Source of the DNA: Candidatus Uhrbacteria bacterium GW2011_GWF2_39_13 | GTDB taxonomy: Bacteria > Patescibacteriota > Patescibacteriia > UBA9934 > GWF2-40-263 | DNA length: 59,900 nucleotides | Direction: 5' to 3' | Assembly: GCA_000993535.1 (NCBI GenBank) | Contig: LBWG01000008.1 | Span: 1 to 59,900, forward strand | In this document: in pieces, positions 18,045 to 47,477 of the stretch | Layout: every line of letters begins with the position of its first letter | Numbering within the stretch: position 1 is the first letter of the stretch | The notes under the pieces: model-generated | What the model was told of the DNA's origin: nothing | The model's input: the letters and a program-made list of their open reading frames with translations, nothing else | Database searches by the model: none | Translations under genes and position numbers: made by a program

Positions 18045-18467
18045 TCGTGGTATCCAGAACCTCACTGACCTGCCGGCCTATCCAAATATTCAACTCGGAG
18101 ATTTGCCGGGCGGTTGACGCAGAATTTGAGACGTAAAACTTCAATTGAAAAATCGAACTTTGACAGAAAATCTGACATTTTACGAATCAGAGTATCTTGA
18201 AAATAAAAATCGAGGGCAAAAATGATAGAGAGAGCCATAAGTCCCTGAGGTCAAATCCAGCAAGATAAGAACGGCAGTTTTTTGAATTTGTGATAATCAC
18301 ATTGTAGTACAAGTTCGCAAGTTACGAATGCTCAAGCATCTTTCAAAAACAAACCTCCGTCCACTTTTTATCAAAATCATAAAATGACGAACAGCTGAAA
18401 GTTTGACGGATGAGTTGAGTTCAAATCAATCCGGCAAATTACAAGATTTAGTTTCTGGATACTACGC
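18045..18467 (+). repeat. copy B (longest, ~420 bp) of the dispersed repeat family, with terminal inverted repeats
   Basis: CGTGGTATCCAGAACC (18046-18061) versus GTTTCTGGATACTACG (18451-18466) are 14/16 complementary. The core 18361-18467 matches copies A and C, and 18275-18360 additionally matches copy C. Contains the hairpin 18405-18435. Confidence 0.65.
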
Positions 18468-18505
18468 CAGAATTATTCACTATTTCAGGAATGCTTTGTC
18501 GATAC

Positions 18506-19954: not shown

Positions 19955-19956
19955 AT

Positions 19957-20847: not shown

Positions 20848-21539
20848 TGCAATAGCCTTTCTATATTATTTATCGCTTCAGGAACAAATGAGGATTTTTT
20901 CAAAACCTCTGCATATTTCACGCCGATTTTGCTTCCGTGGAAACGAGCCCTTGCCGTTAATTGATCAACCATTTTATCAAGATGCTTTTCCGCGGTCTTG
21001 AATTTCTTCCATGCCTCTATCTTGGCGTCAAAAGTATCGGAGATATCTACAATATGGGTTGGTTCAGGCAAATCATGAATAACTTCGAAATGGTAAAAGG
21101 ATTTTGCCGTCCACGGTTCGCCAAGATCGGCGCTGCAATGCCAGGCCGCCTGCCACCAGGCGTCGGATGTCATTCTTGCCATTGCCATGTGCTGGAAATA
21201 TTCTGCCCAGTAATGCCCCAGTATTATATCCGGTTTTACTCTTCTTATTTCTTCAATGCAGATTCTATAATTTTCCCTATTTTCCTGTACCGCAAAATCC
21301 GGCAGGTCATGACATTTGAAATCGGAAACGCCGATTACGGAATGCGCTTCCACTGCTTCCGACTTGAATGCTTTCACTATGTCCTCGGCCTTTTGCGATT
21401 TGCATTCTGTTGCTTCGTCTCCGTTTCCAAAACAAACCACACTGACCGATATGTTGTTATCAGTGAACTTTTTTATAATTCCACCCGCCGCGATAATGGA
21501 ATCGTCAAGGTGTCCGGCAAGAATCAGTACTTTTTCCAT
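20844..21539 (-). CDS. PIG-L/LmbE-family N-acetylglucosaminyl deacetylase
   Basis: 231 aa. VLILAGHLDDSIIAAGG matches the AHPDDE-type LmbE signature. 4-nt overlap with the downstream gene. Confidence 0.8.
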   Translation of the reverse strand: MEKVLILAGHLDDSIIAAGGIIKKFTDNNISVSVVCFGNGDEATECKSQKAEDIVKAFKSEAVEAHSVIGVSDFKCHDLPDFAVQENRENYRICIEEIRRVKPDIILGHYWAEYFQHMAMARMTSDAWWQAAWHCSADLGEPWTAKSFYHFEVIHDLPEPTHIVDISDTFDAKIEAWKKFKTAEKHLDKMVDQLTARARFHGSKIGVKYAEVLKKSSFVPEAINNIERLLQ

Positions 21540-21591: not shown

Positions 21592-22524
21592 TTAAACTAC
21601 ACCTTTCCTGCTGATTTGTTTTCCTTTTCTGCTCTTTCTGAAAGAAACGGGAGACTGCTTCTCAAGCTTTTTGAAAATTCGGTTAAAATGTGTCAGATTG
21701 CTGAAACCAGTTTCGGTAGAGATTTCCGTTATGCTCATATTGGTATTGAGTAAAAAATCTTTTGCTTTTTCTATTCTGAACTTATTCAGATACTGAACAA
21801 AACTTATTCCAAGTTCTTTCTTAAAGAGATGACTGAAGCGGCTGGCGCTGAGAAATATACGGGAGGCCGCGTCTTCTATGCTTATTTTATTCTTGTACTT
21901 TTTTTCAATGTAGCCCCGTATAACAGAAATTTTGTCTTTTTCATGTATTTTTTCAAAGAAGAGAAGTTTGCTTTGGCTGTCCACGATGTAATTACTGACA
22001 AGGGAAATCAAATCTACTATTGCCTGGAGTTTCTCTTGATCTAAATATGGTGTTTTGAAGAAATGTTTTTTTAAATCAGAATCACTAGTATTCAAATTCA
22101 AATCAGATATCATCTCTTTGAATTTTCTGAAGCTTTTTTCTGAGGGTTTTTCCCGTAAGATCTGACCGGCTGTAACACAGCCAATAAATTTTTTGTTGAT
22201 GAATATAGGTACTCCTATATCAGTTAGTCCGGCATGGCATGTATATATTACGCTCTTCTGTTTGATTCTTGCTTCATTTAATGCCGAGGCATCATATATT
22301 TCACATTTTTTTCTGCCCTCGGGGCATGCTCTTATAAGTTTACAAAGCGGATTCAGGTGATGCTCCGGACATAGTTTGAAGCATTCTCCGTCAGACGATG
22401 CGAAGTCCATAGGAATACCTGTAAGTCTATAAACGATATTATGGTATTCTGCCAGAATTTTTTCTTTGCTTACATCGATGATCTTCTCGTAGATTTTCTT
22501 CTCAGTCATAATGTTTTTCTCCAT
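21592..22524 (-). CDS. AraC-family transcriptional regulator with N-terminal PocR-like sensor domain
   Basis: 310 aa. Cys-rich PocR-like region (...CKLIRACPEGRKKCEIYD...YTCHAGLTDIGVPIFINKKFIGCVTAGQ...) and a C-terminal AraC double HTH (...ISTETGFSNLTHFNRIFKK...). Confidence 0.8.
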   Translation of the reverse strand: MEKNIMTEKKIYEKIIDVSKEKILAEYHNIVYRLTGIPMDFASSDGECFKLCPEHHLNPLCKLIRACPEGRKKCEIYDASALNEARIKQKSVIYTCHAGLTDIGVPIFINKKFIGCVTAGQILREKPSEKSFRKFKEMISDLNLNTSDSDLKKHFFKTPYLDQEKLQAIVDLISLVSNYIVDSQSKLLFFEKIHEKDKISVIRGYIEKKYKNKISIEDAASRIFLSASRFSHLFKKELGISFVQYLNKFRIEKAKDFLLNTNMSITEISTETGFSNLTHFNRIFKKLEKQSPVSFRKSRKGKQISRKGVV

Positions 22525-29369: not shown

Positions 29370-29398
29370 TTGACTTAATTCTCCGCTTGTGTTATCAT
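29370..29398 (+). promoter_or_regulatory. sigma70-like promoter upstream of the GntR-type regulator operon
   Basis: TTGACT (29370-29375), a 17-nt spacer, then TATCAT (29393-29398), ~50 nt upstream of ATG 29450. It is followed by a tandem AGTATCC (29411-29417, 29421-29427). Confidence 0.45.
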
Positions 29399-29449: not shown

Positions 29450-30634
29450 ATGAATTTGAAAAAAGAAAAAGGCAAGTCCCATAAGATAGCTGAAGCTGTA
29501 AAGTCAGAAATTGCGTCAGGCAAAATGAGGCCCGGAAACAGATTGAAGAGTGTCCGCGAACTGGCTTCTTATTTTTCTGTAAGCACGAAGGCGGCCCAGA
29601 GGGCGTTTGATACGCTGGAAATTGAAGGCTTCGTGGAGCGCAGGCAGGGTTCCGGTACTTTCGTCAGGGAAAATAAAACTTCCAGAAGCAATACAGTTTA
29701 TTTTCTTGTTCCACACGCATCGCATATTGCGTCTTCACATGAATCAAGTGTCATGCTCAATCGTATCCTTTACGGGATAACATCCGCTCCGTCACCCAGG
29801 GTATTGCCTCAATTAGTTCCTGTTTCAAAACAAAATGTCCGGAGCATAACCAAAACACCATCCGCCATAGACTGGGCAACCTTGGAGCAAATTCCCGCCG
29901 GTGCAAATGTCTTTGCAAGTGCTTTATGGTATAATAGAATTTTCCCCTTTCTCGTGGAACGCGGAGTCAAAGGGCTTCTTCTCGTTGCACAGTATGAACA
30001 GGAGCAGCAGAAAATGTATGATCTTATCAGAGATGCTTCCTGGTCGTTTATTACGATAGACCGTTTTGCCGGGATACAGAAAACCGTGGAATATCTCTAT
30101 CGTCTCGGAAGACGGCGGATTGCCGCAATAAAGCGTTGCCCTGAACAACCTGAGCATCCCTTCAGAAAAGGTTTTATAACGGCTTATGAAAATTACGATA
30201 TGGTTTTCAAAAATGATTTCTTTCATGAAATTACTCCAGAGCAATCTGAAGGCAATATGAGTGATACGGTATATGAACTCTTCAGAAAAACGAAATTCGA
30301 TTCTCTGATTTTATGTAATCCGAATATTGTCGGCGCCACATATTCAGCGCTCGCTAAAATCGGACTGAAAGTACCTGATGATGTCGCTGTAATTGCCTTC
30401 AGGGATATGCCTGAATACGTTAATTTAACTCCTGCTGTAAGCGCGTTTGATTTTTCATGGGCGGACATAGGCCGGGAAATTTCCCGTATTTTCACTTCAG
30501 ACGATCCTTTTTACAAAGATACCCGCTTCCATTCGTCAATTATCAAACGCGGCTCCACTGAGAAAAATATGCGCCCTGGTACGGATGAAGAATTCATGAC
30601 AGAACTATCCTACGCTCAGGATATAATGCAATAA
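29450..30634 (+). CDS. GntR-family wHTH regulator fused to a LacI/periplasmic-binding-protein-like sugar-sensor domain
   Basis: 394 aa. The N-terminal segment ...LKSVRELASYFSVSTKAAQRAFDTLEIEGFVERRQGSGTFV... is a GntR wHTH. The remaining ~320 aa resemble a Peripla_BP sensor domain (...DDVAVIAFRD...). Confidence 0.75.
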   Translation: MNLKKEKGKSHKIAEAVKSEIASGKMRPGNRLKSVRELASYFSVSTKAAQRAFDTLEIEGFVERRQGSGTFVRENKTSRSNTVYFLVPHASHIASSHESSVMLNRILYGITSAPSPRVLPQLVPVSKQNVRSITKTPSAIDWATLEQIPAGANVFASALWYNRIFPFLVERGVKGLLLVAQYEQEQQKMYDLIRDASWSFITIDRFAGIQKTVEYLYRLGRRRIAAIKRCPEQPEHPFRKGFITAYENYDMVFKNDFFHEITPEQSEGNMSDTVYELFRKTKFDSLILCNPNIVGATYSALAKIGLKVPDDVAVIAFRDMPEYVNLTPAVSAFDFSWADIGREISRIFTSDDPFYKDTRFHSSIIKRGSTEKNMRPGTDEEFMTELSYAQDIMQ

Positions 30635-30716
30635 AATGCCTGGAGAAAAACTTATGGAAAACAGTAACTTGAGAATTACACAATGTCAAAAAGTTTTCAA
30701 TCCAGAACACCCTCAT

Positions 30717-31319
30717 ATGGCAATGAAATATAGGAATTTTACCCTGCTCGAACTCCTCATTGTAATAGCAATCATAATGATACTGGCAAGTGTTTTACTG
30801 CCATCCCTCAGCAAGGCCAGAAGCGTAACTCAAAGAATCGCATGTACCAACATACTCAAGCAGATTTCAACGGGTACCCAGATGTACGTACAGGATTACA
30901 ATGACTGGCTGCCCAGCGGAAGTATGTACAGCGGCGGCGGCGGCACTATTTATTGGTTTGAACATGTTGGTAACTATATTAGCCGTCGCAAATCATATTT
31001 CAAATGTCCCTCTGAAAATGTTGCTGTCGGGCCCAATACTGGCGAATTTTTCTATTACACACATTATGGCATAAATTCGAGATTGACAGGGGACTATGAC
31101 CTCTTGAGAAAAGTCAGTACAATTAAAAGCCCTTCTATCGCCGCCCATTATGCAGATAACATAAACAAGGATACTTTTAGAGTCATATATGGTTTCAATG
31201 TTTCATTCAGGCATGTTGCCGGAACAGGCAATTTATGCTATCTCGACGGGCATGTGTCCAGTAAAAAAATAAATGATATTGGCAACGGTTCATCATACTT
31301 CAAAGAAGGTTTTGAGTGA
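30717..31319 (+). CDS. prepilin-type N-terminal methylation-domain protein, DUF1559-like
   Basis: The track ORF starts at 30636, 1 nt after the GntR stop. I prefer ATG 30717 (MAMKYRNFTLLELLIVIAIIMILASVLLPSLSKAR). The C-terminal HVAGTGNLCYLDG is an H-X10-DG variant. Confidence 0.8.
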   Translation: MAMKYRNFTLLELLIVIAIIMILASVLLPSLSKARSVTQRIACTNILKQISTGTQMYVQDYNDWLPSGSMYSGGGGTIYWFEHVGNYISRRKSYFKCPSENVAVGPNTGEFFYYTHYGINSRLTGDYDLLRKVSTIKSPSIAAHYADNINKDTFRVIYGFNVSFRHVAGTGNLCYLDGHVSSKKINDIGNGSSYFKEGFE

Positions 31320-31344
31320 AAAGGTGTTTCAAGTGGGGAAAATT

Positions 31345-32139
31345 ATGAAGATTTATGTTAGTGCTGATCTGGAAGGAATTTCAGGGATAGTGAATTTTGA
31401 ACAGACGGGCAGGGATAATAAAGGCCCTGAATATGAAAGGGCAAGAAGGTTGCTGACCAATGAAGTCAATACTGTTGTTGCGGCATGCAGAGAAGCCGGA
31501 GTTGAAAAGGTCGTTGTTATGGATGGTCATGCTGGCGGATATAATTTCATAGTAGAGGATTTGCATCCTGAGGGGGAATATGTCATCGGGACCAACAGGA
31601 AGAAATCTTTTGAGGGAATGACTGACGATTTTGATGGAGTTATCCTTCTGGGATATCATGCAATGGCGGGAACCGAAAATGGTGTTTTAGACCATACACA
31701 ATCATCGAAAACATGGTATAACTATTGGATCAATGATATAAAAATGGGAGAACTTGGACAGAGCGCAATTCTCGCCGGACATAGAAATATACCGGTTATT
31801 TTAGTTACCGGCGATCTTGCAGTATGCAAAGAGGCAAAGGAGCTATTGCCGCATATTGAAACTGTCGCCGTGAAAGAAGGATATTCACGCACCTGCGCCA
31901 AAATAATACCTCCCTCCGCTGCACAATTGATGATAGGGAGGGGTGTTAAAAAAGCCTTGAGTAAAATAAAAACAATGAAACCGTATAAAATCAGTTTTCC
32001 CGCAAAAGTAAAAATTGAATTCCAGACAACAGACATCGCAGACACTTATGAAAAAAATGGATGGAAGAGGGTCAGTGGCACAATTGTTGAAAAAATCGTT
32101 GATAAACCTAAAAAAGGACAGGACTTAAGAATTCTTTGA
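31345..32139 (+). CDS. M55-family D-aminopeptidase (DppA-like)
   Basis: MKIYVSADLEGISGIV... is the characteristic M55 N-terminus. I prefer the start at ATG 31345 (a GGGGAA-type purine run lies upstream) over the track start at 31273, which overlaps the preceding gene. Confidence 0.8.
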   Translation: MKIYVSADLEGISGIVNFEQTGRDNKGPEYERARRLLTNEVNTVVAACREAGVEKVVVMDGHAGGYNFIVEDLHPEGEYVIGTNRKKSFEGMTDDFDGVILLGYHAMAGTENGVLDHTQSSKTWYNYWINDIKMGELGQSAILAGHRNIPVILVTGDLAVCKEAKELLPHIETVAVKEGYSRTCAKIIPPSAAQLMIGRGVKKALSKIKTMKPYKISFPAKVKIEFQTTDIADTYEKNGWKRVSGTIVEKIVDKPKKGQDLRIL

Positions 32140-32185
32140 AAAAATTATTTTTATTGCGCAAATAAAAGACGTAGGAAAAAATCTT

Positions 32186-32953
32186 ATGAAAAACAGAGAT
32201 ATCAGAAATTTTAAATATCCGGAATGTCCTTTTGAAATAATAAAATATAGGTTTTTTACATTGGTAGAGCTTATGATTGTAATAACAATAATATTAATCC
32301 TTGCCGGACTTTTATTGCCGGCTTTGAAGAACGCAAAGAGCATGAGCCAATCTATTCTTTGCAAGGGAAATCTCAAACAGATTGGTATTGCCATGACCGG
32401 ATATGTTTCTGATTACAATGAAAAACTAATGTGGAGCGGTACTCCTTATGTAAGCGCAGCAACTGGAAACGGATCTATTCGTCCGTGGTATGAACTTCTA
32501 GGCATCTTCGGACCATACTCTATACTTGATTATGGAGTCAGAATAGCCAGTTTGGCGACAAAGAACGAACGCTATGGGAAAAATATGCTGTGTCCCAATC
32601 AGAATATATCAGATAAAACACTTTTCTCTTATGCCGATTATGCCTGCAACCGGTGGTTCTTCGGGGTAAGAACACAAACGGATACTTACAAAAATCATTC
32701 GGTTGAGATGATGCAGAAGCCAAGCCAGGTCATATTGGTGGCCGATAACGGGTACGACAGTAATTATTCAGTTTCAATGGGATGGTTTTCGGGAAATACT
32801 GCATATGATGGATACTGTATAAGGTCTAATCATATCAAAAGTGCGAACATTCTTTTCGGCGATATGCACGTAAATGGCATGAAACGCGAAGATATAGGTA
32901 ATGGCTCCTCAATACTCAGGAGTGGTTTTGATTCTTTCTCAGGATATGAATGA
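32186..32953 (+). CDS. prepilin-type N-terminal methylation-domain protein, DUF1559-like
   Basis: ...YRFFTLVELMIVITIILILAGLLLPALKNAKS... The C-terminal HIKSANILFGDM is an H-X9-D variant (Gly replaced by Met). Confidence 0.8.
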   Translation: MKNRDIRNFKYPECPFEIIKYRFFTLVELMIVITIILILAGLLLPALKNAKSMSQSILCKGNLKQIGIAMTGYVSDYNEKLMWSGTPYVSAATGNGSIRPWYELLGIFGPYSILDYGVRIASLATKNERYGKNMLCPNQNISDKTLFSYADYACNRWFFGVRTQTDTYKNHSVEMMQKPSQVILVADNGYDSNYSVSMGWFSGNTAYDGYCIRSNHIKSANILFGDMHVNGMKREDIGNGSSILRSGFDSFSGYE

Positions 32954-32980: not shown

Positions 32981-34006
32981 ATGAGAATATTAGAAGACAG
33001 AAATAAAATAAAATTTACTGCAATGTTTTTTTTGTTGGCTGGAAGTGTATTTTCGTGGCACAGAGAATTATTGGCGGAAGATGGTAAAAACATAGATGAG
33101 CACCGTCTTCAGATTATGAACCTTTACAGACAGGGAACTGCTGGTATTCCGGAACTTGAAAAAGCTTTGAACGATAAGAGCACTCTTACGCGCCGTGCCG
33201 CTGTCCGTGCCTTGGCTGATATGGGTGAACCAGCCATTGGCGCATTAATCAAGGCAACGGATAATGAAGATGCGCTTGTAAGAAGGATTGCGCTTCTTGA
33301 ACTGACGAAAGCGGGCGCCGATAAGTCAACGCAATATCTGGAAAAATCACTTGCAGACAAAGATGTGACCATAAGGGAAGATGCCGTAAAAAAACTTATT
33401 GTAATTAAACCGCGAACGGAAGAAATAAAAAAACTCATGCAGCAGGCGCAGAAAGATGAATGCATGGATGTGCGCGCGCCCGTAACGGCGGCTTTATGGC
33501 CGTTTCAGAAAGAAGTTGTCCTGCTGAAGGACCGCCCTGATATGGCGGATCACACTGCCCGGATTAAACTTGAACAAAGCATAGAATTGCCTGTTAAAGG
33601 ATGGAAATTCAAAGTTGACACAAAATTGGACGGGCACGTGAGGCAATGGTTCAAACCTAATCTGAATGACTCAAAATGGAAGGATATATCGATAGGACTA
33701 TGGAAGGATGCGCATATAGGCATAGCATGGCAGCGTCTTTCCTTTACCCTGCCGTCTAAGCCTGATTTTACGGCGGTTGAACTCCGTTTCGGCGCGGTGG
33801 ATGAAAGCGCCTGGGTCTGGATCAACGGCAAGTATGCCGGGCATCACGATATCGGTCCTGAGGGATACAACAAAGAATTTTCTCTGGATGTTACCAATGA
33901 ATTAAAATGGGGCGAGAAAAACCAGTTGACAGTTCGCGTGCTCAATACAGAAGTCGGCGGGGGAATATGGAAACCCGTATATATAGATGCGTTGAAATTT
34001 AGATAA
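32981..34006 (+). CDS. secreted HEAT-repeat protein fused to a GH2 N-terminal sugar-binding (galactose-binding-like) domain, with no catalytic domain
   Basis: 341 aa. Hydrophobic N-terminus. HEAT/PBS-lyase-like repeats (RRAAVRALADMGEPAIGALIKATDNEDALVRRIALLEL). The C-terminal half matches the Glyco_hydro_2_N pattern (...WKDISIG...GIAWQRLSFTLP...VELRFGAVDESAWVWINGKYAGHH...FSLDVTNELKWGEKNQLTVRV). Confidence 0.6.
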   Translation: MRILEDRNKIKFTAMFFLLAGSVFSWHRELLAEDGKNIDEHRLQIMNLYRQGTAGIPELEKALNDKSTLTRRAAVRALADMGEPAIGALIKATDNEDALVRRIALLELTKAGADKSTQYLEKSLADKDVTIREDAVKKLIVIKPRTEEIKKLMQQAQKDECMDVRAPVTAALWPFQKEVVLLKDRPDMADHTARIKLEQSIELPVKGWKFKVDTKLDGHVRQWFKPNLNDSKWKDISIGLWKDAHIGIAWQRLSFTLPSKPDFTAVELRFGAVDESAWVWINGKYAGHHDIGPEGYNKEFSLDVTNELKWGEKNQLTVRVLNTEVGGGIWKPVYIDALKFR

Positions 34007-34020: not shown

Positions 34021-36594
34021 ATGATAAGTTTCAGAATAATATCCACATATTTTATATTTACACTGTTGATAGCATCTGCATTCGGGACGGAACCAGGACA
34101 GGAAAAAGAAATAATAAGTATCGTGGAAAGCGGGCGGACTGTCTTTCAGAGAATGGAACCGGATGCCGGACTCTGTCTCTCTATCAGGAATTCAGGAGAA
34201 AAAACTCTGTCTGCTGTTTCTGCCCGCATAAATTCAGCAGATAATATATTGAGAGATAAAATTGCGATCCCGGATATTTCACCGCAGAGCAGTATATCCG
34301 TAAAAATACCAATAGATACAACATTAAAACCGGGCAAATATGATACAGGCCTGCATTTCACGGGGATGCTGGAAAATCTTCAGTTTGATAAAGAGATTAC
34401 GCTTATCATTATTATCGTGCCAAGGCAGAATAAAGATGAATTTCCCGTAATACTATGGAGTGTTTCCAGTCTTGATAAAATAAAGGGCATCGGCTTTACC
34501 CATGCCGGCCTTCCCCTTTCCAGAAACTATGAAAATATATGGAAAAAAGGAAAACCTCTCGGACTCCAAAGCAATAATCTACTGAAAAAAATGGATGATG
34601 CCATGTCATCCGGAATTAGATGCATGATAAATATGCTTCCTGGTGAATGCATCAGCGCTTCTGAAAACCTGAAAATGAAGTATCAGAGAATAGACAGAAA
34701 CGGCGGAACATACAGAAGGTGCGGTCTCTGTGGTAATTTCCCGGAAATCCAGAATTATTTTTATAATGTCGGAGCTTCAATTGCAATGAGCTATGGAAAA
34801 CATCCGGCGTTTCAGGCGGTAAACATTAATACAGAAGTACGTGACACGTCGGAAATCTGTTTCCATAAACATGACAGGGATGCTTATATCACTTATTCCG
34901 GAGAGGATTTCCCGGCGGAAGTTTCCTCAAAAAGAGGTTTGTCTGCGGCATTAAAACAAAAATATGTTCCTGTGAATGGCATTGTTCCAGATGACAATAC
35001 CATTCTGAAATTCTATAAGTGGTTTTGGAAAGAGGGCGATGCATGGAACATTTTGAATTCTAAAGTCCATGAAGGATTAAAGACATCCGGCAGGCCGGAT
35101 TTCTGGACCTTCAATGATCCGGCAGGGCGCGTCCCTCCGACATGGGGAAGCGGCGGAGATGTCGATGCCATATCGCACTGGACATATACTTATCCTGATC
35201 CTCTTAGAATGGCTCTTGCGGTAGATGAACTTTTTGCCATGGCAAAAGGAAAGCCCGGACAGAAAGTAATGAAAATGACCCAGGTCATATGGTATAGAAA
35301 GCAGACTGCTCCAACATTACCTGCAAAAGAAAAGTACCGTGCGGAATGGGAAAAGAAAGAACCTGATGCAACATTCATAACAACAGCTCCTGATCATTTG
35401 CGGGAAGCTTTCTGGTTAAAAATATCCAGACCAGTACAAGGGATAATGTATTTCGGCACAGGAGTTTTGTTTGGAGAAGGAAAAAGTCAGCGCCTGACGA
35501 ATCCTGAAACGCTTAAGGTACTTTCGGAATTGTTACATAAAACGCTAGCTCCATTGGGGCCGACACTATTGCAAGTGCCGGGCATACGCCCCGATGTAGC
35601 TATTCTTGAGAGCTTTACTTCCAGTGTCTTCGGTGAAGAAGCTACCTGGGGGTGGGCACGCGGGTGGACTGGCGATGCTCACCTGATGTTGCAATGGGCG
35701 CGTTTGCAGCCTGAGGTAATCTACGAGGAAACTATTGTACGCGATGGTTTGGATGGTGTCAAGGTGCTGTTAACGCCGAATTGCTCAGTGCTTCCAGTTA
35801 GTGTTTTTGAAAAAATCCGTGAGTTCCAGCGTAAAGGCGGAATAATAGTAGCGGACCAGAATCTGGCACCTGCGCTGAAGTCTGATATACTTCTTCGCAA
35901 ATTTACCCGCAATGGGCCTCCTGACAAATCCAAGACTGAATTACAGAATATGGCATCAAAACTCAGAGATGAATTGAAAGAAGTCTATACTCCGTCCCTG
36001 GATTCATCTGACTCTGATGTAATAGTGTACAGACGTGCATATAAAGACACCGATTACATTTTTGCGATCAATGATAAACGTACTTATGGAGACTATGTCG
36101 GACATCATCGCAAAGTTATGGAGAAAGGACTCCCTAATACTGCCGAATTATTTCTGAAACGCAAAAACGTCTGTGTCTATGACCTGACCGAAAACCGTGA
36201 GATACTGACGAAATCTACAGAGAACGGGATAAAATGGAACGCTGATCTTGCGCCCGGCGGTGGACGGCTTTATATGGTTTCATCCAGGCCATTGGAGAAA
36301 ATTATTATTGATGTCGCACCTCGCAAGGAGGACGAACAGAAAGTCCGCATATCTGCAAAAGTTACGGATAAAAAACTTCAACCGTTGGATGCCGTTGTGC
36401 CGATGGAAATAAAAATTATCGACCCGAAAGGGAAAGAGGCCGAGTTCAGTGGTTATTATGGAGCAAAGGACGGCATTCAGGAAATAAATCTTGATCTGGC
36501 GAAAAACGATGGACCCGGAACATGGATAATAAAAGCAAAGGAATTAGCTACGGGCAAAACTGCGGAAGCTGCTTTCAAATTTATTAAAAAATAG
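34021..36594 (+). CDS. secreted hypothetical protein (857 aa), possible glycoside-hydrolase-like protein with a GH42M/GATase1-like module
   Basis: Signal-peptide-like N-terminus (MISFRIISTYFIFTLLIASAFG). ...GVKVLLTPNCSVLPVSVFEKIREFQRKGGIIVADQN... resembles the trimerisation/GATase1-like domain of GH42-type proteins. The C-terminus looks Ig-like. Coding is secure; function is not. Confidence 0.4.
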   Translation: MISFRIISTYFIFTLLIASAFGTEPGQEKEIISIVESGRTVFQRMEPDAGLCLSIRNSGEKTLSAVSARINSADNILRDKIAIPDISPQSSISVKIPIDTTLKPGKYDTGLHFTGMLENLQFDKEITLIIIIVPRQNKDEFPVILWSVSSLDKIKGIGFTHAGLPLSRNYENIWKKGKPLGLQSNNLLKKMDDAMSSGIRCMINMLPGECISASENLKMKYQRIDRNGGTYRRCGLCGNFPEIQNYFYNVGASIAMSYGKHPAFQAVNINTEVRDTSEICFHKHDRDAYITYSGEDFPAEVSSKRGLSAALKQKYVPVNGIVPDDNTILKFYKWFWKEGDAWNILNSKVHEGLKTSGRPDFWTFNDPAGRVPPTWGSGGDVDAISHWTYTYPDPLRMALAVDELFAMAKGKPGQKVMKMTQVIWYRKQTAPTLPAKEKYRAEWEKKEPDATFITTAPDHLREAFWLKISRPVQGIMYFGTGVLFGEGKSQRLTNPETLKVLSELLHKTLAPLGPTLLQVPGIRPDVAILESFTSSVFGEEATWGWARGWTGDAHLMLQWARLQPEVIYEETIVRDGLDGVKVLLTPNCSVLPVSVFEKIREFQRKGGIIVADQNLAPALKSDILLRKFTRNGPPDKSKTELQNMASKLRDELKEVYTPSLDSSDSDVIVYRRAYKDTDYIFAINDKRTYGDYVGHHRKVMEKGLPNTAELFLKRKNVCVYDLTENREILTKSTENGIKWNADLAPGGGRLYMVSSRPLEKIIIDVAPRKEDEQKVRISAKVTDKKLQPLDAVVPMEIKIIDPKGKEAEFSGYYGAKDGIQEINLDLAKNDGPGTWIIKAKELATGKTAEAAFKFIKK

Positions 36595-36621: not shown

Positions 36622-37758
36622 ATGAATGAAAGGGTTCAAGTCGGAATTATTGGTTTGGGAACTATGGGACAGGGGCATATCAAAACCCTCCTGAATGATG
36701 TTCCTAACTGTGAAGTCGTTGCCGTATGTGATACAGATGAGAAACGGTTTAAAGAAGCGGAAGGAAAAGGGCTTCTGAGTGAAAAAATGCAGCGTTTTTC
36801 TTCATACGGTAAATTGATAGACTCAGATCTCTGCAAAGCTGTTGTTGTTGTTACACCACATCCGTTTCATCCTGAAATCAGTATCTATGCTTTCAGAAAA
36901 GGCCTGCACGTTCTAAGCGATAAACCGATAGCAATAACGGTTTCAGCCGCCGATGAAATGATAAGGGAATGGAAGAAGACTTCACTTAAATTTTCCACTA
37001 TGTATTCAATGCGCACTACCTCTGTAAACATAGCTATAAAGGATTTTCTGCTACAGGGAAAACTGGGTGATATCAGAAGAGTTGATATGGTCTGTACAAA
37101 ATGGCTCAGAACACAGAGATACTATGATGAACAGACTTGGAGAGGAACCTGGAAAGGCGAAGGGGCGGGACTTCTTTTAAATCAGGCGCCGCATAATCTT
37201 GATCTTCTTTACTGGTGGTTTGGTCCGGCAGAAGCGGTATCAGCAGAAGTGTCAAAAAGGTTCCACAATATTGAGACAGAAGATGAAGTTACTGCAAATA
37301 TCAGAACTAGATCCGGATTTCCCATCAGGTTTTATTCAACCACAGGCGAAGCTCCCGGTTTCGACAGAGTGGAAATTGTAGGGAGTAAAGGAACATTGAT
37401 CAGGGATGGGCGAATGGCTAAAGTTTTCACTTTCCTTGAATTGGAAGAAGAGATTGAAAAAACTATTTATGAAAATGAGAATACTATGCTGGATGTTGCA
37501 TTTTAAAAAACGGAAATTGAAGTTCCTGATTTGCCCAGAGGACATAAAATAGTATTTCAAGATTTCTTCGATGCAATCATCAATGACAGTGAAAACAGCG
37601 GTATGCTTGCTCCTGGCGATGAGGGAATACATTCGCTGGAATGGGCAAACGCGATGCTTATGTCTTCAATCGAAAAACGTGAAATAATACTTCCCATTGA
37701 TAGAAAGAAATATGATGAATTATTAGAAAAATTGAGAAACGGAAAAATTAAAATATAG
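36622..37758 (+). pseudogene. Gfo/Idh/MocA-family oxidoreductase interrupted by a single in-frame TAA (37504-37506)
   Basis: ORFs 36622..37506 and 37531..37758 are in the same frame (37531-36622 = 909). Reading through gives ...LDVAF*KTEIEVPDLPRGHKIVFQDFFDAII..., a normal Gfo/Idh/MocA C-terminal domain. The N-terminus VQVGIIGLGTMGQGH is the Rossmann motif. Confidence 0.7.
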
Positions 37759-37771
37759 AAAGGTAAAAACC

Positions 37772-38656
37772 ATGAAAATCGCAATCACCCCTATAAGTGT
37801 TTCCAGAATGTTCCGTTCAGGAGAAATGGACATTGAAAAATTCATGCAATTCTGCGCCGAACTGGAGATTGACGGCATTGACTTGCTCGATTCGAATTAT
37901 TATCCGTGGTTCTGGAAAGATAAGAAAAATGAAATCAGGAAAATTCCGGGTTTGCTTGAGAAATACGGGCTCAAACTTGCCGCTTGTGCCACAGCAAATA
38001 ATTTTGCTAAACTGAAAGAAGAAGACAGAAAAACTACTGTTGAAAAAGTAAAGTCGGCAATTGCTGAAGCCGCTGAACTTGGAGCGCCCATGCTTCGTGT
38101 TTTCGGCGGTCATCATTATGATTTTGGCGGGGAAGCCGCAATTGATCATTGGAATGGTCTAAAGTTAGTTATGGAGGGACTGGAAAAATGCGTTGAGGAA
38201 GCGGCGCGTTACAAGGTGGTACTGGCGCTAGAAAACCATGGAAGGCTTCCGGGGCATTCATATGAAGTGGAAGCTATCATAAAGCATTTTAATTCTCCCT
38301 GGGTAAAAGTGATGTTCGACTGTGCTAATTTCATGGGGAATGCAATGGATGAGCCGGAAAATCCTCTGCGCGCATATGAACGACTTAAAAAACATGTTGT
38401 TCATGTCCATGTGAAAGACACGGGCCCAGCAATCACGTCAAACCTGCGCAGAATGGAAGGTTATGTCGCGGGAATGGGTAAAGTACCGCTCAGACAGTTT
38501 GCGGCATTGCTTGAAGAAAATAATTATCAGGGATTCTGTTCCCTGGAATATGAAGCGTCCGCAATTGTCCCGGAAACTATCGGTGTAAAACAGAGCATTG
38601 AATATCTCAAACGCATCAGGGCTATTCATCAGATGTTCAAAGAAGAAAACAAATAG
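37772..38656 (+). CDS. xylose-isomerase-like TIM-barrel protein (sugar phosphate isomerase/epimerase family)
   Basis: 294 aa. ...GIDLLD..., APMLRVFGG, VVLALENHG, HVHVKD and SLEYE motifs are typical of the AP_endonuc_2 / IolE / MocC-like family. Confidence 0.8.
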   Translation: MKIAITPISVSRMFRSGEMDIEKFMQFCAELEIDGIDLLDSNYYPWFWKDKKNEIRKIPGLLEKYGLKLAACATANNFAKLKEEDRKTTVEKVKSAIAEAAELGAPMLRVFGGHHYDFGGEAAIDHWNGLKLVMEGLEKCVEEAARYKVVLALENHGRLPGHSYEVEAIIKHFNSPWVKVMFDCANFMGNAMDEPENPLRAYERLKKHVVHVHVKDTGPAITSNLRRMEGYVAGMGKVPLRQFAALLEENNYQGFCSLEYEASAIVPETIGVKQSIEYLKRIRAIHQMFKEENK

Positions 38657-38663
38657 GTGAAAA

Positions 38664-39521
38664 ATGGATGTTGTTCAGGAAATAAGACTGATGTCCATAA
38701 TGGCGCATCAGGATGATTTTGAATTTACTGCGGCTGGCACGTTTGCCCTCATGAGAAAACATTACGGGGATAAGGTCAGAATTAAAATATTGACCACCAC
38801 CCGCGGGGCTTCGGGGCATCATCAGATGAACACTGAAGAGACATTCAGGAGGAGAGATGCAGAGGCCCGCAGAAGCGCGGAAACAATCGGCGCTGAATAT
38901 GAGTGTCTCAAATGCCTGGACGGAAATCATGTCGAAGCGCAGTTCTTCCCGGATAGAAACGCTCTCGGCGGTTTGTGGAACGCGATAAGAAAATTCCGTC
39001 CCGATTACATATTCTGCCCTCCTGTAATAAACAATCCTCTGGCAGGCATTCATGTTGACCATTACAATACGGCGGTGGCGGTAAGGATGCTGGGGTATCA
39101 GCTGACAGTTCCTCATGCTTATCCGGTGACAGGTGATGCGGTGGCTGAACGGGTGGATTTCCCTCTCATAATAAATGTGGATGACATGTATGCCAGAGAA
39201 AACGAGTGGCATTTCTGCATAGATGTGAGCGAAGTTTACGATAAGAAAAAAGTTCCCATGGCGCTCTGTCATGAATCGCAAATTTTTGAATGGCTTCCGT
39301 GGAATGCAAACATTCAGCCACCAACGACTGAACAATTCAAAGAAAACTTTATAAACAGGCATTTAAACATAAATAAACGCTATGGCCTGAATGATGGTAT
39401 TATGAGAGAGTTTTTCAGGATTACGGGCTGGAGTCGGAAATCTCTGCCAAAAGATTTCAAGACCATATTTCAGCGCATGAGCTTATCGGATGTCGGAAAG
39501 GAAGTATTGGAGAACGGATAG
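38664..39521 (+). CDS. PIG-L/LmbE-family deacetylase
   Basis: 285 aa. LMSIMAHQDDFEFTAAG is an AHPDD-type signature. A second His/Asp region is at HVDHYN. Confidence 0.75.
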   Translation: MDVVQEIRLMSIMAHQDDFEFTAAGTFALMRKHYGDKVRIKILTTTRGASGHHQMNTEETFRRRDAEARRSAETIGAEYECLKCLDGNHVEAQFFPDRNALGGLWNAIRKFRPDYIFCPPVINNPLAGIHVDHYNTAVAVRMLGYQLTVPHAYPVTGDAVAERVDFPLIINVDDMYARENEWHFCIDVSEVYDKKKVPMALCHESQIFEWLPWNANIQPPTTEQFKENFINRHLNINKRYGLNDGIMREFFRITGWSRKSLPKDFKTIFQRMSLSDVGKEVLENG

Positions 39522-39843: not shown

Positions 39844-41916
39844 TTATATTTCATATTTTATAATTGCATGGCGCATTATGGATTTCAAAATTGTTTCATG
39901 TCGACAATTATTTTTTTGCCAGGAAAGCTTGACAGGTTCTTTTTTTTCCGGTAAATAAAGCAATGAATTTTTCGGGATATGACCGCTTAATATGGAAAAA
40001 TTCATGTCAACTCCTCCCTTTAATTCTCCGCAGCGCATAAGCAGACAGCCCTGAGAATTGTCAGAAAACAGGACCCAGTCATGTCTGACTTCCGGATGCC
40101 CGTATATTTTTACGGGTTCGAGATCGGTTTTCAGCCATTCTATCATGCCGACAATTTCGTCCGCATTATATGGGTCTTTCCAATAGCGGCTGTCTATCGA
40201 GTTGTAATGGACATTATGTTTCGACTGGAAGACTCCCGGCTTGTATTTATAATCGATTTTTCCGATATATGCACATTTTCCCTTTCCGTACGTTGAGGTA
40301 ATGTTCTCTCCATTTTTCTGCGCCGTGGAGAATTGTTTATTAGGGTCGTAGTTCGCCGTTTCCTCAGTGGAGTCGGAACTGCCTGAAAAACTTCCGCCGA
40401 AAAGTTCAGCGAAAGCAGGATTGCAGCGTTTTCTGAAATCAACATTGAAAGCTCCTGACTTTTCAGTAACAAGAAGGGCAGCGCCATTTTTAACAAACGA
40501 AAAAATGACAGAAAGCTGAGTCTCGGAAATATATTCCGCATCAGGCAGTATCAGGAGATCAAAATCTTTTAATCCTTCTTCTGTTATAAATTCATCCTGG
40601 ACAATACTGAAAGGAATGCGGCGCTTGAAAAGAATATGCTCCATCACACACGCTGAAATATGAGAATCGTAATTAACAAGGGCCAATGACCTCTGATTTC
40701 GCCATACCGCAATGCGGGCTAAAGGCTTTACACCGCAATAAATATTTTTATGGCAGTTGAAGAAATCTGATAATTCCTGTATGCCGGGGCCCGGCTCCTC
40801 CAGAGCATTTTTCCTGGGTTCTGCGTATCCCCATCTGGAATAGATTCCGGGATTGCCAGAGAATGTCAGGTTAAAGCTCATTTCCTCATCAGTTTTAAAG
40901 GCCGTAATAACACTTTTTCCCAAGCGTCTCATGAGGTTCATTCCGCGCATCTTATGAGTCACCCTCGGTATTGCGTCAATATCGGTATCGGGACGCAAAT
41001 CAGGATTTTCTTCCCACACTATATCTACATATTTAGCCTGCGCCGTTGAATTGATGCCGTGAGTGAAAGCCTGGTTCACGCCCCACACCGACTGGCCGTT
41101 GGAATCTATGGCTATGCATGGATTCACTTTTTTGGCGTATTCAGATAATTCCTTAATATAATCAGTCACTGTGTCGCAGCGGAACTCGATCCATTCCTGC
41201 ATCAGGGGATTTTTTATTCTTTCCAGTTCCCATGGATTAAGGAAACGGAGATAGAAGTTAGGGGCCCTGAATGTTTCAAAGCCACCAAAACCGAAACGTT
41301 TTTTCTGTTCGTTTTCCGACGGATACCGCAGCCGCAGGAATTCCCTGAATTTTTCCTGGCAGTACCGGCAGTGACAGCTGTCCGGCTCCGGCCATACCGC
41401 CAAATTATCAAAATGCAATAAATCCGTTTTCACATAATTAACGGCTTTTTCTATTTGCTTTTTCATGTGTTCGCGCCAGCCGGGGGAATTGAAACATGCA
41501 ACCCATCGCCATGATTGTTCCCCTCCGTAATGGACAAATCTGTTGTCATGCGTATGCACAACCCAGTCTTCACAGTCCGGATAATCTTTCAGCATGGATT
41601 CAAAATAAACGGTGTTTGCAAGATATACCCCGTGTTTCATGTTATGCTTATGGCATAATTCTGCCAACTGCCTGGCTTTTTCCTGTTCTTCTTTCTGATC
41701 AGTGTCGCTTAATCCACGGTCGAACTGTCCGACTATCAAATTTATTCCGAGCAGTTTCAGTCTGGCAATCCGCTCTTCGCTGTATTCCCATTCATATAAT
41801 TCCTCTTCATTGTCCAGAGCGTTTCCGGCCCTTAATCTTCCGGCTAACGGGTGCCATCCTCCGGCAAGATAGATTCCTTCATTTTTCCACCAGTCATTTC
41901 TCTGTTGCGTAATCAT
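39844..41916 (-). CDS. GH42-like glycoside hydrolase (beta-galactosidase-family architecture), cytoplasmic
   Basis: 690 aa. VACFNSPGWREH and the C-x-C-x2-C cluster CHCRYCQEKFREFLRLRY mirror the GH42 zinc-site/FR.WL region. FDLLILPDAEYISETQLSVIFSFVKNGAALLV resembles the GH42 trimerisation (GATase1-like) domain. Confidence 0.6.
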   Translation of the reverse strand: MITQQRNDWWKNEGIYLAGGWHPLAGRLRAGNALDNEEELYEWEYSEERIARLKLLGINLIVGQFDRGLSDTDQKEEQEKARQLAELCHKHNMKHGVYLANTVYFESMLKDYPDCEDWVVHTHDNRFVHYGGEQSWRWVACFNSPGWREHMKKQIEKAVNYVKTDLLHFDNLAVWPEPDSCHCRYCQEKFREFLRLRYPSENEQKKRFGFGGFETFRAPNFYLRFLNPWELERIKNPLMQEWIEFRCDTVTDYIKELSEYAKKVNPCIAIDSNGQSVWGVNQAFTHGINSTAQAKYVDIVWEENPDLRPDTDIDAIPRVTHKMRGMNLMRRLGKSVITAFKTDEEMSFNLTFSGNPGIYSRWGYAEPRKNALEEPGPGIQELSDFFNCHKNIYCGVKPLARIAVWRNQRSLALVNYDSHISACVMEHILFKRRIPFSIVQDEFITEEGLKDFDLLILPDAEYISETQLSVIFSFVKNGAALLVTEKSGAFNVDFRKRCNPAFAELFGGSFSGSSDSTEETANYDPNKQFSTAQKNGENITSTYGKGKCAYIGKIDYKYKPGVFQSKHNVHYNSIDSRYWKDPYNADEIVGMIEWLKTDLEPVKIYGHPEVRHDWVLFSDNSQGCLLMRCGELKGGVDMNFSILSGHIPKNSLLYLPEKKEPVKLSWQKNNCRHETILKSIMRHAIIKYEI

Positions 41917-41969
41917 TTAAAACCTCAAATTTATATTGCTTGGTACATTGAATTTTTTCTTTTAAAATG

Positions 41970-43424
41970 TCAAAAACTTAACGGGAAAAGCTCTTTGGGT
42001 TTAGCGTTAATAACGCTTTTACCTATCGCATAAGCTTCATCCATAGAGGATATCTTTTTTTCCTTCAGAAGTTCATTTAATATTTCGGCTATAAGCTTTT
42101 TGTTGGAATGCGCCATGCCCGCGCTGCCTTCGATATTAGCCATATCCAGGCCGGCGACAGTTCTGTATGGAAATTCAGAAATGAATGCTTTTGCCATTTT
42201 TCTGCCGAGTTCAGGTTCAAGCAGCGGTATCCAGGTAAAATCGGCAATTGCGTTTTTATATCTGGCGCATAAATCAAGGACCTCATTATAATAATGTTTA
42301 CCTCCGTGGAGGAGAATGAAGTTCATATCGGGATTTTTGGCAATCACCTCTTCAAGGAGGGCCGGCCGTGATGTTTCAATATCTTTGCCTTTATGTCCGG
42401 TGTGAATTTGGATTGTCTGCCATTTACGGTCTCTGGCCATGTTTATGCATCTGAAAAAAATGAAATCTTCAAAAACCCGAAGCGTCTCTTCAAAATCCAT
42501 ATCCTGAGAATCCAGAAATTCAGACTGCAATTTATTGAAAGCCTTTCTTGCATCTTTTTCTTCCCGCTCTCTGAATTCGACAGTCCTCGCGAAACAGCAG
42601 GCGCTCTTCATCTGGGATACTCCTCTGGATGCGAAATAATCAAAAGCTTTATCGAGAAAAACAAGATATTCGTCAAAAGATATGCTTTTCAGATATCTGT
42701 TAATTTCTCTTATGTGAATTTGAGACATTTCCCATGGTTTTCTGAGCGGAATGACCGGCAGTCCATTAATGTCCTGCACAAATTCCAGAAACCATTTGGC
42801 GATAGCGAAATCGCGTCGATACCTGAAAGGGAGGACCAGCGCATAATCAAATCTGAAAGTCGCGGGAAGAAACTTAAGTTCAAGTTGTTTATTTTCTTCT
42901 GTCAAATTATCAAAGTGTTCACGGGCATATCTGCTGGTCCAGATATTTATGCTTCTCACAATTCCGGCCTTCCTGTATGCGCCAGGCAGATGTTTCAGAA
43001 TTCCATCCTTGTATGCGGCCTTCACTCTCAGCGAAAGTTCCACATATTGTTTTCTGTCGGACATGTCCAGCTCCGGCATCTCGTAAAGTATTTTAAATCC
43101 ATCCACAAGCGTTTCTAAAGATTTCTCGCCTGAAAACTTTTTAAAATACGGTTGCGCCAACTCATAAGCGGCCATTTCGTTTTCAACGCATACGGACAGG
43201 AATTCCCACTTGTTTTTGTAAGGAAAACTTTCCGCTCTCACAAATAAATTACCCGCATAATCCTGAAACAGCAATTCAATCGGATTCCGGATGGCACGTC
43301 CTGTGTTTCTGAAAGAACCGTCAGGGTACCATTCATCTTTTTCCCAATGAAAATGAAAATCGCAGTATCCTGTCTCCATGATTTTCTTCTCAATGTTCTG
43401 TTCTGTTTCAATGCCCATAGTCAA
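41970..43424 (-). CDS. amidohydrolase-superfamily TIM-barrel protein (function unknown)
   Basis: 484 aa. YCDFHFHW near the N-terminus, IQIHTGH, NFILLHGG, and AIADFTWIP near the C-terminus are consistent with metal-dependent hydrolases of the amidohydrolase-2/UxaC-like type. Confidence 0.5.
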   Translation of the reverse strand: MTMGIETEQNIEKKIMETGYCDFHFHWEKDEWYPDGSFRNTGRAIRNPIELLFQDYAGNLFVRAESFPYKNKWEFLSVCVENEMAAYELAQPYFKKFSGEKSLETLVDGFKILYEMPELDMSDRKQYVELSLRVKAAYKDGILKHLPGAYRKAGIVRSINIWTSRYAREHFDNLTEENKQLELKFLPATFRFDYALVLPFRYRRDFAIAKWFLEFVQDINGLPVIPLRKPWEMSQIHIREINRYLKSISFDEYLVFLDKAFDYFASRGVSQMKSACCFARTVEFREREEKDARKAFNKLQSEFLDSQDMDFEETLRVFEDFIFFRCINMARDRKWQTIQIHTGHKGKDIETSRPALLEEVIAKNPDMNFILLHGGKHYYNEVLDLCARYKNAIADFTWIPLLEPELGRKMAKAFISEFPYRTVAGLDMANIEGSAGMAHSNKKLIAEILNELLKEKKISSMDEAYAIGKSVINAKPKELFPLSF

Positions 43425-43461
43425 TGCAAGTCCTGTTTTACAATTTTATACGTTCATGGCC

Positions 43462-47433: not shown

Positions 47434-47477
47434 TATGTTCCTCCATATTATTTTAAACTTATTTGCCTATTGTCTTT

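Follow-up and report, generated by a model that had tools for sequence, protein, structure and literature searches.

Proteins of the DUF1559/H-X9-DG family form one of the largest paralogous families of the Planctomycetota, Verrucomicrobiota and Lentisphaerota, with tens to hundreds of copies per genome and no assigned function. Planctopirus limnophila possesses 68 DUF1559 paralogues, two of which are essential (PMC10632474), and Rhodopirellula baltica possesses 74, some of which are stress-responsive (PMC2754498). In Verruconatronum alginivorum (Opitutales), the pulG-like gene pgaptmp_000050 is found in an alginate-lyase cluster; in a 2026 proteome study, its 251-aa product reached 0.513% of the proteome with alginate but 0% with mannose or sucrose, exceeding the neighbouring lyases (0.02-0.17%) while the canonical GspG was unchanged. 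Of the 67 paralogues in the same genome, several adjoin genes for signal-peptide proteins and sialidases (PMC13274419). Bacteria of these phyla degrade complex glycans without SusC/SusD. Here we describe four genes for pilin-like proteins (genes 1 to 4) in a stretch of DNA of 59,900 nt (contig LBWG01000008.1, positions 1 to 59,900; hereafter the window), which is deposited under the name Candidatus Uhrbacteria bacterium GW2011_GWF2_39_13, together with their relatives in other loci. The best named relative of the window organism is Lentisphaerae bacterium GWF2_44_16, and the window is from a member of the Lentisphaerota; its G+C content is about 41%, and its locus recurs at about 99.5% identity in several metagenomes. 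In the Lentisphaerota, the position of such pilin-like genes, as first structural gene in glycan operons headed by LacI/AraR-type regulators, is not random, and the branch to which they belong has changed residue -1 of the pilin-type N-terminus. In the literature, we found passing mentions only and no account of this regulator-pilin-exoenzyme architecture or of the change at residue -1.

The placement was evaluated in a first set of 84 loci, 80 from species-representative genomes and four from close homologues, which were sampled around pilin-like genes as 20-kb pieces and not from whole genomes. After ORFs (open reading frames) were called, pilin-like genes were marked by motif, and regulators, counted as LacI or GntR proteins with a sugar-binding domain (AraR-type), were detected with a profile seeded with the two such regulators of the window. 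Gene calls, regulator detection and signal-peptide calls were simple procedures of our own with a partial Pfam cross-check, and taxon labels of the loci were taken from record titles. The next same-strand gene was pilin-like in 12 of the 21 regulators of the first set, and none of 20,000 within-locus label shuffles reached this number (mean 2.3, maximum 9); one more regulator-pilin pair, in L001 (the prefix L denotes sampled loci), lay outside the motif marking and was found by BLAST. In a hold-out of 80 metagenome loci and six long-contig look-ups, a pilin-like gene was directly after 12 of 15 regulators. Nine look-ups, picked solely for their long contigs and with precomputed Pfam annotation, placed the queried pilin-like gene directly behind a LacI regulator or a GntR regulator with a periplasmic-binding-protein domain in six cases and in an operon headed by one in eight. 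Consistently oriented, the regulator and the pilin-like gene overlap by 4-38 nt in several loci. The families recognised by Pfam among 52 upstream neighbours were Peripla_BP_3 (10), GntR (8), LacI (2) and T2SSF (1), while any other family occurred once or twice.

A reading of the window made from the sequence alone (hereafter the sequence-only reading) had pointed to a repeated regulator-then-pilin arrangement, which is borne out by these counts and by the glycan-active operon mates described below. As a general trait of DUF1559 proteins, the pattern did not survive: it is a trait of the Lentisphaerota, and none of 127 members with Gly or Ala at residue -1, which are from Planctomycetota/Verrucomicrobiota-type loci, is behind a regulator. 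The regulator-pilin pairs differ widely among themselves (median normalised alignment score 0.03-0.05) and hence represent many old paralogous modules rather than one conserved locus. Identity among the regulators is 13-24%. Sequences of regulators and pilin-like proteins co-diverge weakly (Spearman 0.27; reached by 27 of 5000 permutations).

Canonical prepilins are cleaved after Gly(-1). In the window proteins, residue -1 is Ser, Asn, Phe and Tyr for genes 1 to 4, respectively, and the Gly or Ala that marks a prepilin peptidase site is missing from all four. Within the first set, residue -1 is Gly in 73% and Ala in 27% of the members from Planctomycetota loci (n = 26) and Gly in 45% and Ala in 50% of those from other loci, Verrucomicrobiota included (n = 40), whereas Gly (3%) and Ala (5%) together make up only 8% in Lentisphaerota loci (n = 40). 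Lentisphaerota members have Lys, Arg, Asn, Ser, Asp, His and similar residues instead (Lys, Arg, Asn, Asp, His and the like in 82% of the 40), and their leaders are frequently just MKK or MKRK. Despite this change, F+1, T+2, E+5 and P+22 stay invariant or nearly so in an alignment of 105 relatives. When residue -1 was taken as a proxy for lineage in the hold-out, 12 of 24 members without Gly/Ala(-1) were behind a regulator vs none of 60 with it (Fisher p = 2.4e-8); in the first set minus the window, the corresponding numbers were 10 of 34 and 0 of 67 (p = 6.8e-6), giving 22 of 58 vs 0 of 127 in the pooled data. This coincidence of the loss of Gly/Ala(-1) with regulator linkage indicates that the regulator-wired genes constitute a distinct branch of the family. 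To judge from the residues at this site, the branch may either be served by a peptidase with changed specificity or consist of proteins that are no longer cleaved. Three further ORFs (L014, 2413-3441; L024, 10762-11643; L033, 1642-2703) start with FTLIELL, switch to low complexity (AAAAQQNCLSKTKNNTSS...) and still end in H-X9-DG; each may be a pilin-like gene, frameshifted or recoded, that lies in tandem behind an intact copy.

The four window genes are members of this Lentisphaerota-specific branch of the GspG-like/DUF1559/H-X9-DG pilin-like family. A six-frame scan of the window with the pilin N-terminal motif returned exactly four ORFs, the same four that the sequence-only reading had named (Table 1), and the translations share a layout in which a short, basic, K/R-rich leader is followed by F-T-[LI]-x-E-L-[LM]-[IV]-V-I-x-I-I, by ...LLP.L..A...C...[LI][KR] and by a C-terminal H-X9/10-D-[GMC]-H. 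Phe+1 and Glu+5 of type IV pilins and pseudopilins (class III signal peptide; PF07963, TIGR02532) are found in all four (x/F-T-[LI]-x-E, the slash marking the boundary between residues -1 and +1), as is the LLPAL motif with Pro+22 of the hydrophobic pilin helix, for which packing on a sheet is predicted by modelling. The N-terminal motif that had been proposed is exact in three genes, with gene 1 reading F-T-I-V-E rather than F-T-L-x-E; the proposed H-X9-DG-like terminus is an exact H-X9-DG in gene 1, while genes 2, 3 and 4 have the variants H-X10-DG, H-X9-DM and H-X9-DC, and gene 1 alone passes TIGR04294 (H-X9-DG; 19-bit cut-off), a model matched at E<=0.001 by 21 of the 105 relatives. Scores of the window proteins against DUF1559/SBP_bac_10 (PF07596) are 24.4, 22.0, 20.6 and 18.2 bits vs a gathering threshold of 23.3, which only gene 3 exceeds, and these weak matches are confined to profile positions 2-45 of 268; Pfam N_methyl matches are weak too and cover the first ~40 profile positions only. 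By name, no solute-binding Pfam family other than PF07596 was found in the window pilin-like proteins. GspG models are the best or near-best match of the first 60-80 residues of pilin-like proteins, a stretch that also aligns to PDB 5wda. Against the GspG equivalog TIGR01710, however, the window proteins reach 23.9-29.9 bits vs a cut-off of 88.85 and align over their N-terminal 50-60 residues only, and ComGC and PilA models likewise match through the first 50-60 residues only. The mature window proteins have about 230 residues vs about 310 in members from Planctomycetota loci.

The globular domain was examined with AlphaFold models of gene 3. A first model from an 18-sequence alignment was too weak (predicted local distance difference test score, pLDDT, 67) and was replaced with one from a 105-sequence alignment (pLDDT 85; predicted template-modelling score, pTM, 0.80), which contains a 51-residue N-terminal helix (residues 26-76) and strands 85-89, 96-100, 152-155, 183-188, 219-224 and 229-233. 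The predicted fold is therefore of pilin architecture, a helix plus a small beta-sheet. The sequence-only reading had proposed screening such models for folds of lectins and carbohydrate-binding modules (CBMs); in Foldseek searches of PDB with both models, only the N-terminal pilin helix was matched, with E above 0.1, and no significant lectin, CBM or solute-binding match was returned. Such matches speak neither for nor against a lectin or CBM fold. In sequence searches of PDB with the two profiles, the N-terminal helix was again the only part matched. Among the 105 relatives, for which mean column identity is 15%, E28 is invariant and F24, C59, C136, Y73, Y152, H216, N221, D226 and H228 are nearly invariant. 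C59 and C136 probably form a disulfide, which would place the protein outside the cytoplasm. All paralogues share this frame and one conserved H...N...D-x-H site, while the middle is hypervariable and differs from operon to operon. Such hypervariability fits partner-specific recognition, although it does not distinguish a glycan from a protein partner. When the globular domain alone was searched against 1.84 billion cluster representatives, 33 relatives were found, all with a pilin-type N-terminal region; a globular domain that was detached or fused to a known domain was never found among these 33.

In Lentisphaerota loci, a signal-peptide-like N-terminus, called with a crude heuristic, was found in 15 of the genes following a pilin-like gene vs 6.4 expected, and the next gene encoded a signal-peptide-like protein of at least 500 aa in 11 cases vs 3.1 expected; none of 5000 shuffles reached 11 or 15. 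The enrichment of exported downstream genes was not significant in other phyla. Families were also sought in 29 proteins encoded behind regulator-pilin pairs outside the window, and all those recognised are glycan-related: DUF4838, Laminin_G_3 (LamG), CBM9, GH42, PL8, GH78 rhamnosidase, GH39, GH123, F5/8 type C and CBM11. Transporter families were not found among these 29 operon mates, and susC-like TonB-dependent transporter or susD-like genes were found neither among them nor, by Pfam, among the window genes. A conserved small partner gene downstream in Planctomycetota/Verrucomicrobiota loci was considered and rejected, as most of the ~125-aa ORFs were unrelated or spurious and only those of L051 and L083 were alike. 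Behind the GntR-type regulator of L089 (8903-14259), genes for two ~266-aa proteins that belong to no known family are interspersed among several pilin-like genes, an arrangement reminiscent of minor-pilin sets. On the 5.87-Mb contig of L085 (ctg13253l of ERZ25042269), an unusually short Secretin-domain gene (13959-14906, minus strand; 315 aa) is convergent to a GntR/pilin-like/CBM9/LamG module.

Comparison of orthologous loci suggests how operon B of the window (Table 1) may have been assembled. The regulator that heads it is 51% identical to that of L004, where the gene after the regulator is a 61% orthologue of gene 3 and not of gene 2. Orthologues of gene 3 (46-61% identity) are directly behind GntR-type regulators in L003, L004 and L085, and L001, L004 and L085 share a module in which a GntR-type regulator precedes a gene-3-type pilin, a CBM9 protein and a LamG protein. 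Gene 2 and the M55 gene appear to have been inserted into the module in the window and the downstream enzymes to have been exchanged. In L171, a 99.5% identical metagenomic copy of the 30636-31319 locus, a 4-nt indel frameshifts gene 2 and leaves a truncated 138-aa call (4896-5312); the indel is either a population variant in which gene 2 is lost or an assembly error.

Based on these observations, we tentatively propose, with a probability of about 0.35, that the pilin-like proteins are operon-specific, substrate-recognising subunits of a shared type IV filament/secretin machine that capture a glycan for the enzymes and for uptake. From a single promoter before the regulator, the whole operon, pilin-like gene and enzymes included, would be read as one sugar-inducible transcript, as suggested by promoter-like sites upstream of the regulators, without a counterpart between regulator and pilin-like gene, and by the gene overlaps. 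The product would be an envelope protein outside the cytoplasm, with a pilin N-terminal helix and a Cys pair, that may plug into a type IV filament or secretin machine whose genes lie elsewhere, capture the glycan of its operon at or near the outer membrane and deliver it both to uptake and to the exported enzymes co-expressed with the pilin-like protein. The pilin-like gene would then fill the operon slot that SusC/SusD have in Bacteroidota. Pilin-based nutrient capture is biologically plausible given that pili-like fibres of planctomycetes bind dextran (PMC5394234), that a PilQ secretin outranks all other outer-membrane proteins of Akkermansia in abundance (PMC4960237), that sugar-binding proteins of Sulfolobus have pilin-type signal peptides (PMC3047682) and that adhesion to cellulose occurs via type IV pilin-like structures (cited in PMC4704652); SusD-like glycan capture by pilin-like proteins is a plausible hypothesis as well. 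Capture best covers the members linked to importers, namely gene 1, which is next to ABC permeases, a gene of L090 next to an MFS gene and the pilin-like gene of L086, and it also fits the fibre data from bacteria of the Planctomycetes-Verrucomicrobia-Chlamydiae (PVC) group. The L086 gene heads an operon of Peripla_BP_2, radical SAM, FecCD and ABC-ATPase genes without a glycan enzyme (10001-13896), which suggests that the family is attached to importers of the siderophore/cobalamin type too. The fullest version of the proposal is rather unlikely: a new kind of Lentisphaerota polysaccharide utilisation locus (PUL), in which a LacI/AraR-type repressor is firmly coupled to an envelope subunit that derives from a pilin, is specific for a substrate and has a processing site altered to a residue other than Gly at -1, and in which this subunit, together with a shared secretin/type IV filament machine, captures the glycan and draws it through the outer membrane.

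Several results weigh against capture by a filament subunit. From the specificity of PilD/GspO, a residue other than Gly or Ala at -1 should block prepilin cleavage and hence filament assembly, and Gly/Ala(-1) is gone from this branch, which weakens the premise of the sequence-only reading that the proteins are pseudopilus subunits. Among the Pfam-annotated window genes, there is none for a type II secretion system (T2SS) or type IV pilus assembly component (ATPase, platform protein, secretin or peptidase), just as that reading had observed. The structural searches returned the pilin helix only, orthologous pilin-like genes (46-61% identity) precede different enzymes (CBM9 plus LamG, PL8 in L003, or HEAT/GH2_N), which argues against a strict pairing of one pilin with one enzyme, and the strong adjacency to large exported proteins fits export or anchoring at least as well as capture. 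Export is the core of an alternative that is only slightly less probable than capture, in which an induced GspG-like pseudopilin would act as a cargo-specific secretion or display adaptor, re-tooling a shared T2SS to move the giant Sec-exported enzymes of its operon through the outer membrane or to tether them at the surface. It would account for the excess of exported and especially large exported products behind the pilin-like gene, for the conservation of the pilin-like/CBM9/LamG triad in L001, L004 and L085 and for GspG as the best or near-best match of the N-terminus; moreover, pilin-like genes occur in each of the three window operons that encode large exported proteins and in no window region that lacks such proteins, and the authors of the Verruconatronum study propose, in passing, T2SS export for the alginate cluster (PMC13274419). 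The missing Gly/Ala(-1) nevertheless argues against pseudopilus assembly here just as it does against capture, a T2SS gene occurs just once among the 52 upstream neighbours, and orthologous pilin-like genes precede unrelated enzymes. We know of no precedent for cargo-specific major pseudopilins, and the L086 gene is with an ABC importer only and no enzyme; for such members, uptake fits better than export.

The state of residue -1 could instead mean that the proteins are not filament subunits at all. An uncleaved N-terminus would then serve as a signal anchor in the inner membrane and the globular domain would be a periplasmic accessory specific to its operon, for example a helper that binds oligosaccharides or a scaffold for enzymes. 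Although unlikely, this is consistent with the predominance of charged and other non-Gly/Ala residues in Lentisphaerota members vs Gly or Ala in 100% of Planctomycetota and 95% of other members, with the minimal leaders, with the exact coincidence of Gly/Ala(-1) loss and regulator recruitment and with the absence of assembly genes nearby (in the window, and with one T2SSF among the 52 upstream neighbours). It is hard to reconcile with the invariance of F+1, T+2, E+5 and P+22 in 105 divergent members, which points to proteins that are still processed or assembled by a pilin machine, the peptidase of which may have changed in specificity. The tight coupling to the regulator (in several loci, the two genes overlap by 4-38 nt) and the weak but significant co-divergence would also suit an envelope sensor or regulatory partner that reports extracellular glycan to the adjacent regulator. 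This is very unlikely, as the cytoplasmic part is a leader of 3-20 residues with no evident surface for contact with LacI/AraR, these regulators have sugar-binding domains of their own and high abundance, as seen in the proteome of Verruconatronum, is in keeping with a structural role. Finally, the family is abundant, with at least 4956 relatives at E<=1e-10 among 8000 scored candidates and a background density in Lentisphaerota loci of ~2.1 additional copies per 60 kb, so that four copies in the window are ordinary and members could land beside regulators and catabolic genes without any functional link. The placement exceeds chance, however: the permutation and the hold-out tests effectively refute such hitch-hiking, the orientation and overlap with the regulator are consistent, and substrate-specific induction was measured in a related organism (PMC13274419), all of which makes chance a most improbable explanation.

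The window itself contains three operons with pilin-like genes (Table 1), and the neighbours that the sequence-only reading had listed were all found as described. The stop codon of the GntR-type regulator (30634) is 82 nt before the start of gene 2 at 30717, the M55 peptidase gene ends 46 nt before gene 3, gene 4 overlaps the LacI gene by 11 nt and gene 1 is downstream, after a gap of 93 nt, of the ABC permease genes (5980-7732) and the binding-protein gene (7729-9132). In operons B and C, no promoter-like site comparable to those upstream of the two regulators was found between the regulator and the pilin-like gene, and neither operon contains a transporter gene. The palindrome before the LacI start is a candidate autoregulated operator. 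PDB sequence searches with the giant exported proteins encoded at 34021-36594, 43462-47433 and 47478-50933 (857, 1323 and 1151 aa) returned no relatives, and their Pfam matches are weak at most; the three are probably uncharacterised glycan-active enzymes. That the pilin-like genes are wired into regulated operons, as had been claimed, is thus upheld, while the label of sugar/amino-sugar catabolism is based on partial domain matches, with the giant secreted proteins uncharacterised, and is reasonable rather than proven.

Table 1. Pilin-like genes, regulators, promoter-like sites and operon neighbours in the window. Slashes in N-termini separate residues -1 and +1. HTH, helix-turn-helix.
Feature	Coordinates	Strand	Details
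Pilin-like gene 1	5152-5886	-	Last gene of operon A; N-terminus VNCS/FTIVELLVVIAIIVILA; C-terminal H-X9-DG; TIGR04294 19.7 bits (cut-off 19)
Operon A upstream of gene 1	5980-16906	-	IclR regulator, oxidoreductases, amidohydrolase, aminotransferase, exported GHL10 protein, Zn-dehydrogenase, ABC binding protein, two permeases (Pfam)
Promoter-like site upstream of GntR-type regulator	29370-29398	+	TTGACT-17-TATCAT, 10/12 matches, TG before -10; consensus match only
GntR HTH + Peripla_BP_3 (AraR-type) regulator, head of operon B	29450-30634	+	Pfam GntR 2.1e-14, Peripla_BP_3 3.3e-11
Pilin-like gene 2	30717-31319	+	ORF opens at 30636, likely start 30717; N-terminus KYRN/FTLLELLIVIAIIMILA; C-terminal H-X10-DG; N_methyl 23.1 bits, above cut-off
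M55 D-aminopeptidase-family gene between genes 2 and 3	31273-32139	+	Peptidase_M55 5.8e-79, from ORF residue 25; no signal peptide
Pilin-like gene 3	32186-32953	+	N-terminus KYRF/FTLVELMIVITIILILA; C-terminal H-X9-DM; DUF1559 24.4 bits, above cut-off 23.3
Exported HEAT-repeat + GH2_N-type sugar-binding-domain protein	32981-34006	+	Pfam HEAT_2, Glyco_hydro_2_N; PDB matches to GH2 sugar-binding domains; signal-peptide-like N-terminus
857-aa exported protein	34021-36594	+	Signal-peptide-like N-terminus; weak MG2 match only; no PDB sequence relative
Cytoplasmic tail of operon B	36622-39521	+	GFO/IDH/MocA oxidoreductase, xylose-isomerase-like TIM barrel, PIG-L deacetylase (Pfam)
Rest of operon C	39844-52621	-	Metallophosphoesterase, PHP, two giant exported proteins, amidohydrolase-like, GH42-like (Pfam)
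Giant exported proteins of operon C	47478-50933 and 43462-47433	-	1151 aa, weak CBM_4_9, and 1323 aa, respectively; signal-peptide-like N-termini
Pilin-like gene 4	52649-53440	-	N-terminus KKLY/FTLLELLIVISIIAILA; C-terminal H-X9-DC; TIGR02532 19.1 bits, above cut-off
LacI-family regulator, head of operon C	53430-54476	-	Pfam LacI 1.8e-14, Peripla_BP_3 2.3e-19
Imperfect palindrome just before LacI start	54488-54518	-	31 bp, 80% complementary
Promoter-like site upstream of LacI	54544-54517	-	TTGACA-16-TATAAT, perfect sigma-70 consensus, 12/12 matches

Other regulators of the window have a PocR sensory domain and an AraC HTH (21592-22524, minus strand; 56026-56976, plus strand) or are of the IclR type (16130-16906), and no pilin-like gene comes directly after any of them; in the window, a pilin-like gene follows only the two regulators with a Peripla_BP_3 domain. 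The region 16929-21539 (minus strand) encodes a protein with a weak polysialyltransferase/capsule-synthesis match, a polysaccharide deacetylase and a PIG-L deacetylase, a surface-glycan or amino-sugar set without a pilin-like gene or a large exported protein. At the window edge (257-1977, minus strand), the gene of an AbiEii nucleotidyltransferase toxin (257-1195) and a 266-aa ORF upstream of it overlap, and the two are probably an AbiE-type toxin-antitoxin pair.

These results give a known family a previously undescribed and statistically robust operon role. They also provide sets of regulator, pilin-like gene and enzymes with predictable inducers, as well as residue -1 as a marker of the operon-wired branch. 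If the proteins are substrate-specific capture or export adaptors, the sets could be used for predicting substrates of uncultured Lentisphaerota and for defining glycan loci automatically; if capture in particular is true, they would amount to a pilus-based replacement of SusC/SusD that could explain the 'selfish' polymer uptake and the glycan-binding fibres of PVC bacteria.

Compared with known systems, the window proteins share with the DUF1559/SBP_bac_10 and TIGR04294 family a pilin helix followed by AR..A...C.NNLKQ, a C-terminal H-X9-D-G/x-H and large numbers of paralogues, but they are shorter, only one of the four reaches the Pfam cut-off, and they lack Gly/Ala(-1) and are directly behind LacI/AraR regulators. 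Like GspG/PulG, they have F+1, E+5 and P+22 and align over the first 60-80 residues; unlike GspG/PulG, they score 24-30 rather than 88.85 bits, have a larger and unrelated globular domain, lack Gly(-1) and are not accompanied by gspC-O genes. The pgaptmp_000050 gene of Verruconatronum, which we liken to them by description and not by sequence, is also a pilin-like gene of about 250 aa in a polysaccharide cluster beside signal-peptide proteins and has 67 paralogues in its genome, but it belongs to another phylum-level lineage and is not directly behind a LacI/AraR regulator. In the archaeal bindosome (Bas system) of Sulfolobus (PMC3047682), pilin-type N-termini are likewise found on nutrient-acquisition proteins co-encoded with sugar uptake; the Sulfolobus signal, however, is fused to a true ABC solute-binding domain whereas the globular domain of the window proteins is small and pilin-like, and only one of the four window genes adjoins an ABC transporter. 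Glycan-binding type IV pilin-like adhesins of cellulolytic bacteria (cited in PMC4704652) and ComGC of the competence pseudopilus for DNA uptake, which brings a polymer inside and the models of which match the N-terminus, are precedents for polymer-binding type IV filament subunits; they are single systems encoded with their assembly genes and not hundreds of operon-specific paralogues under sugar repressors. The SusC/SusD PULs of Bacteroidota differ in that the pilin-like fold is unrelated to theirs and that no TonB-dependent transporter or SusD-fold gene is found in the window or the sampled operons, but they resemble the loci described here in their plan, which brings together a regulator, a substrate-specific envelope component and exported glycan-active enzymes in many paralogous loci.

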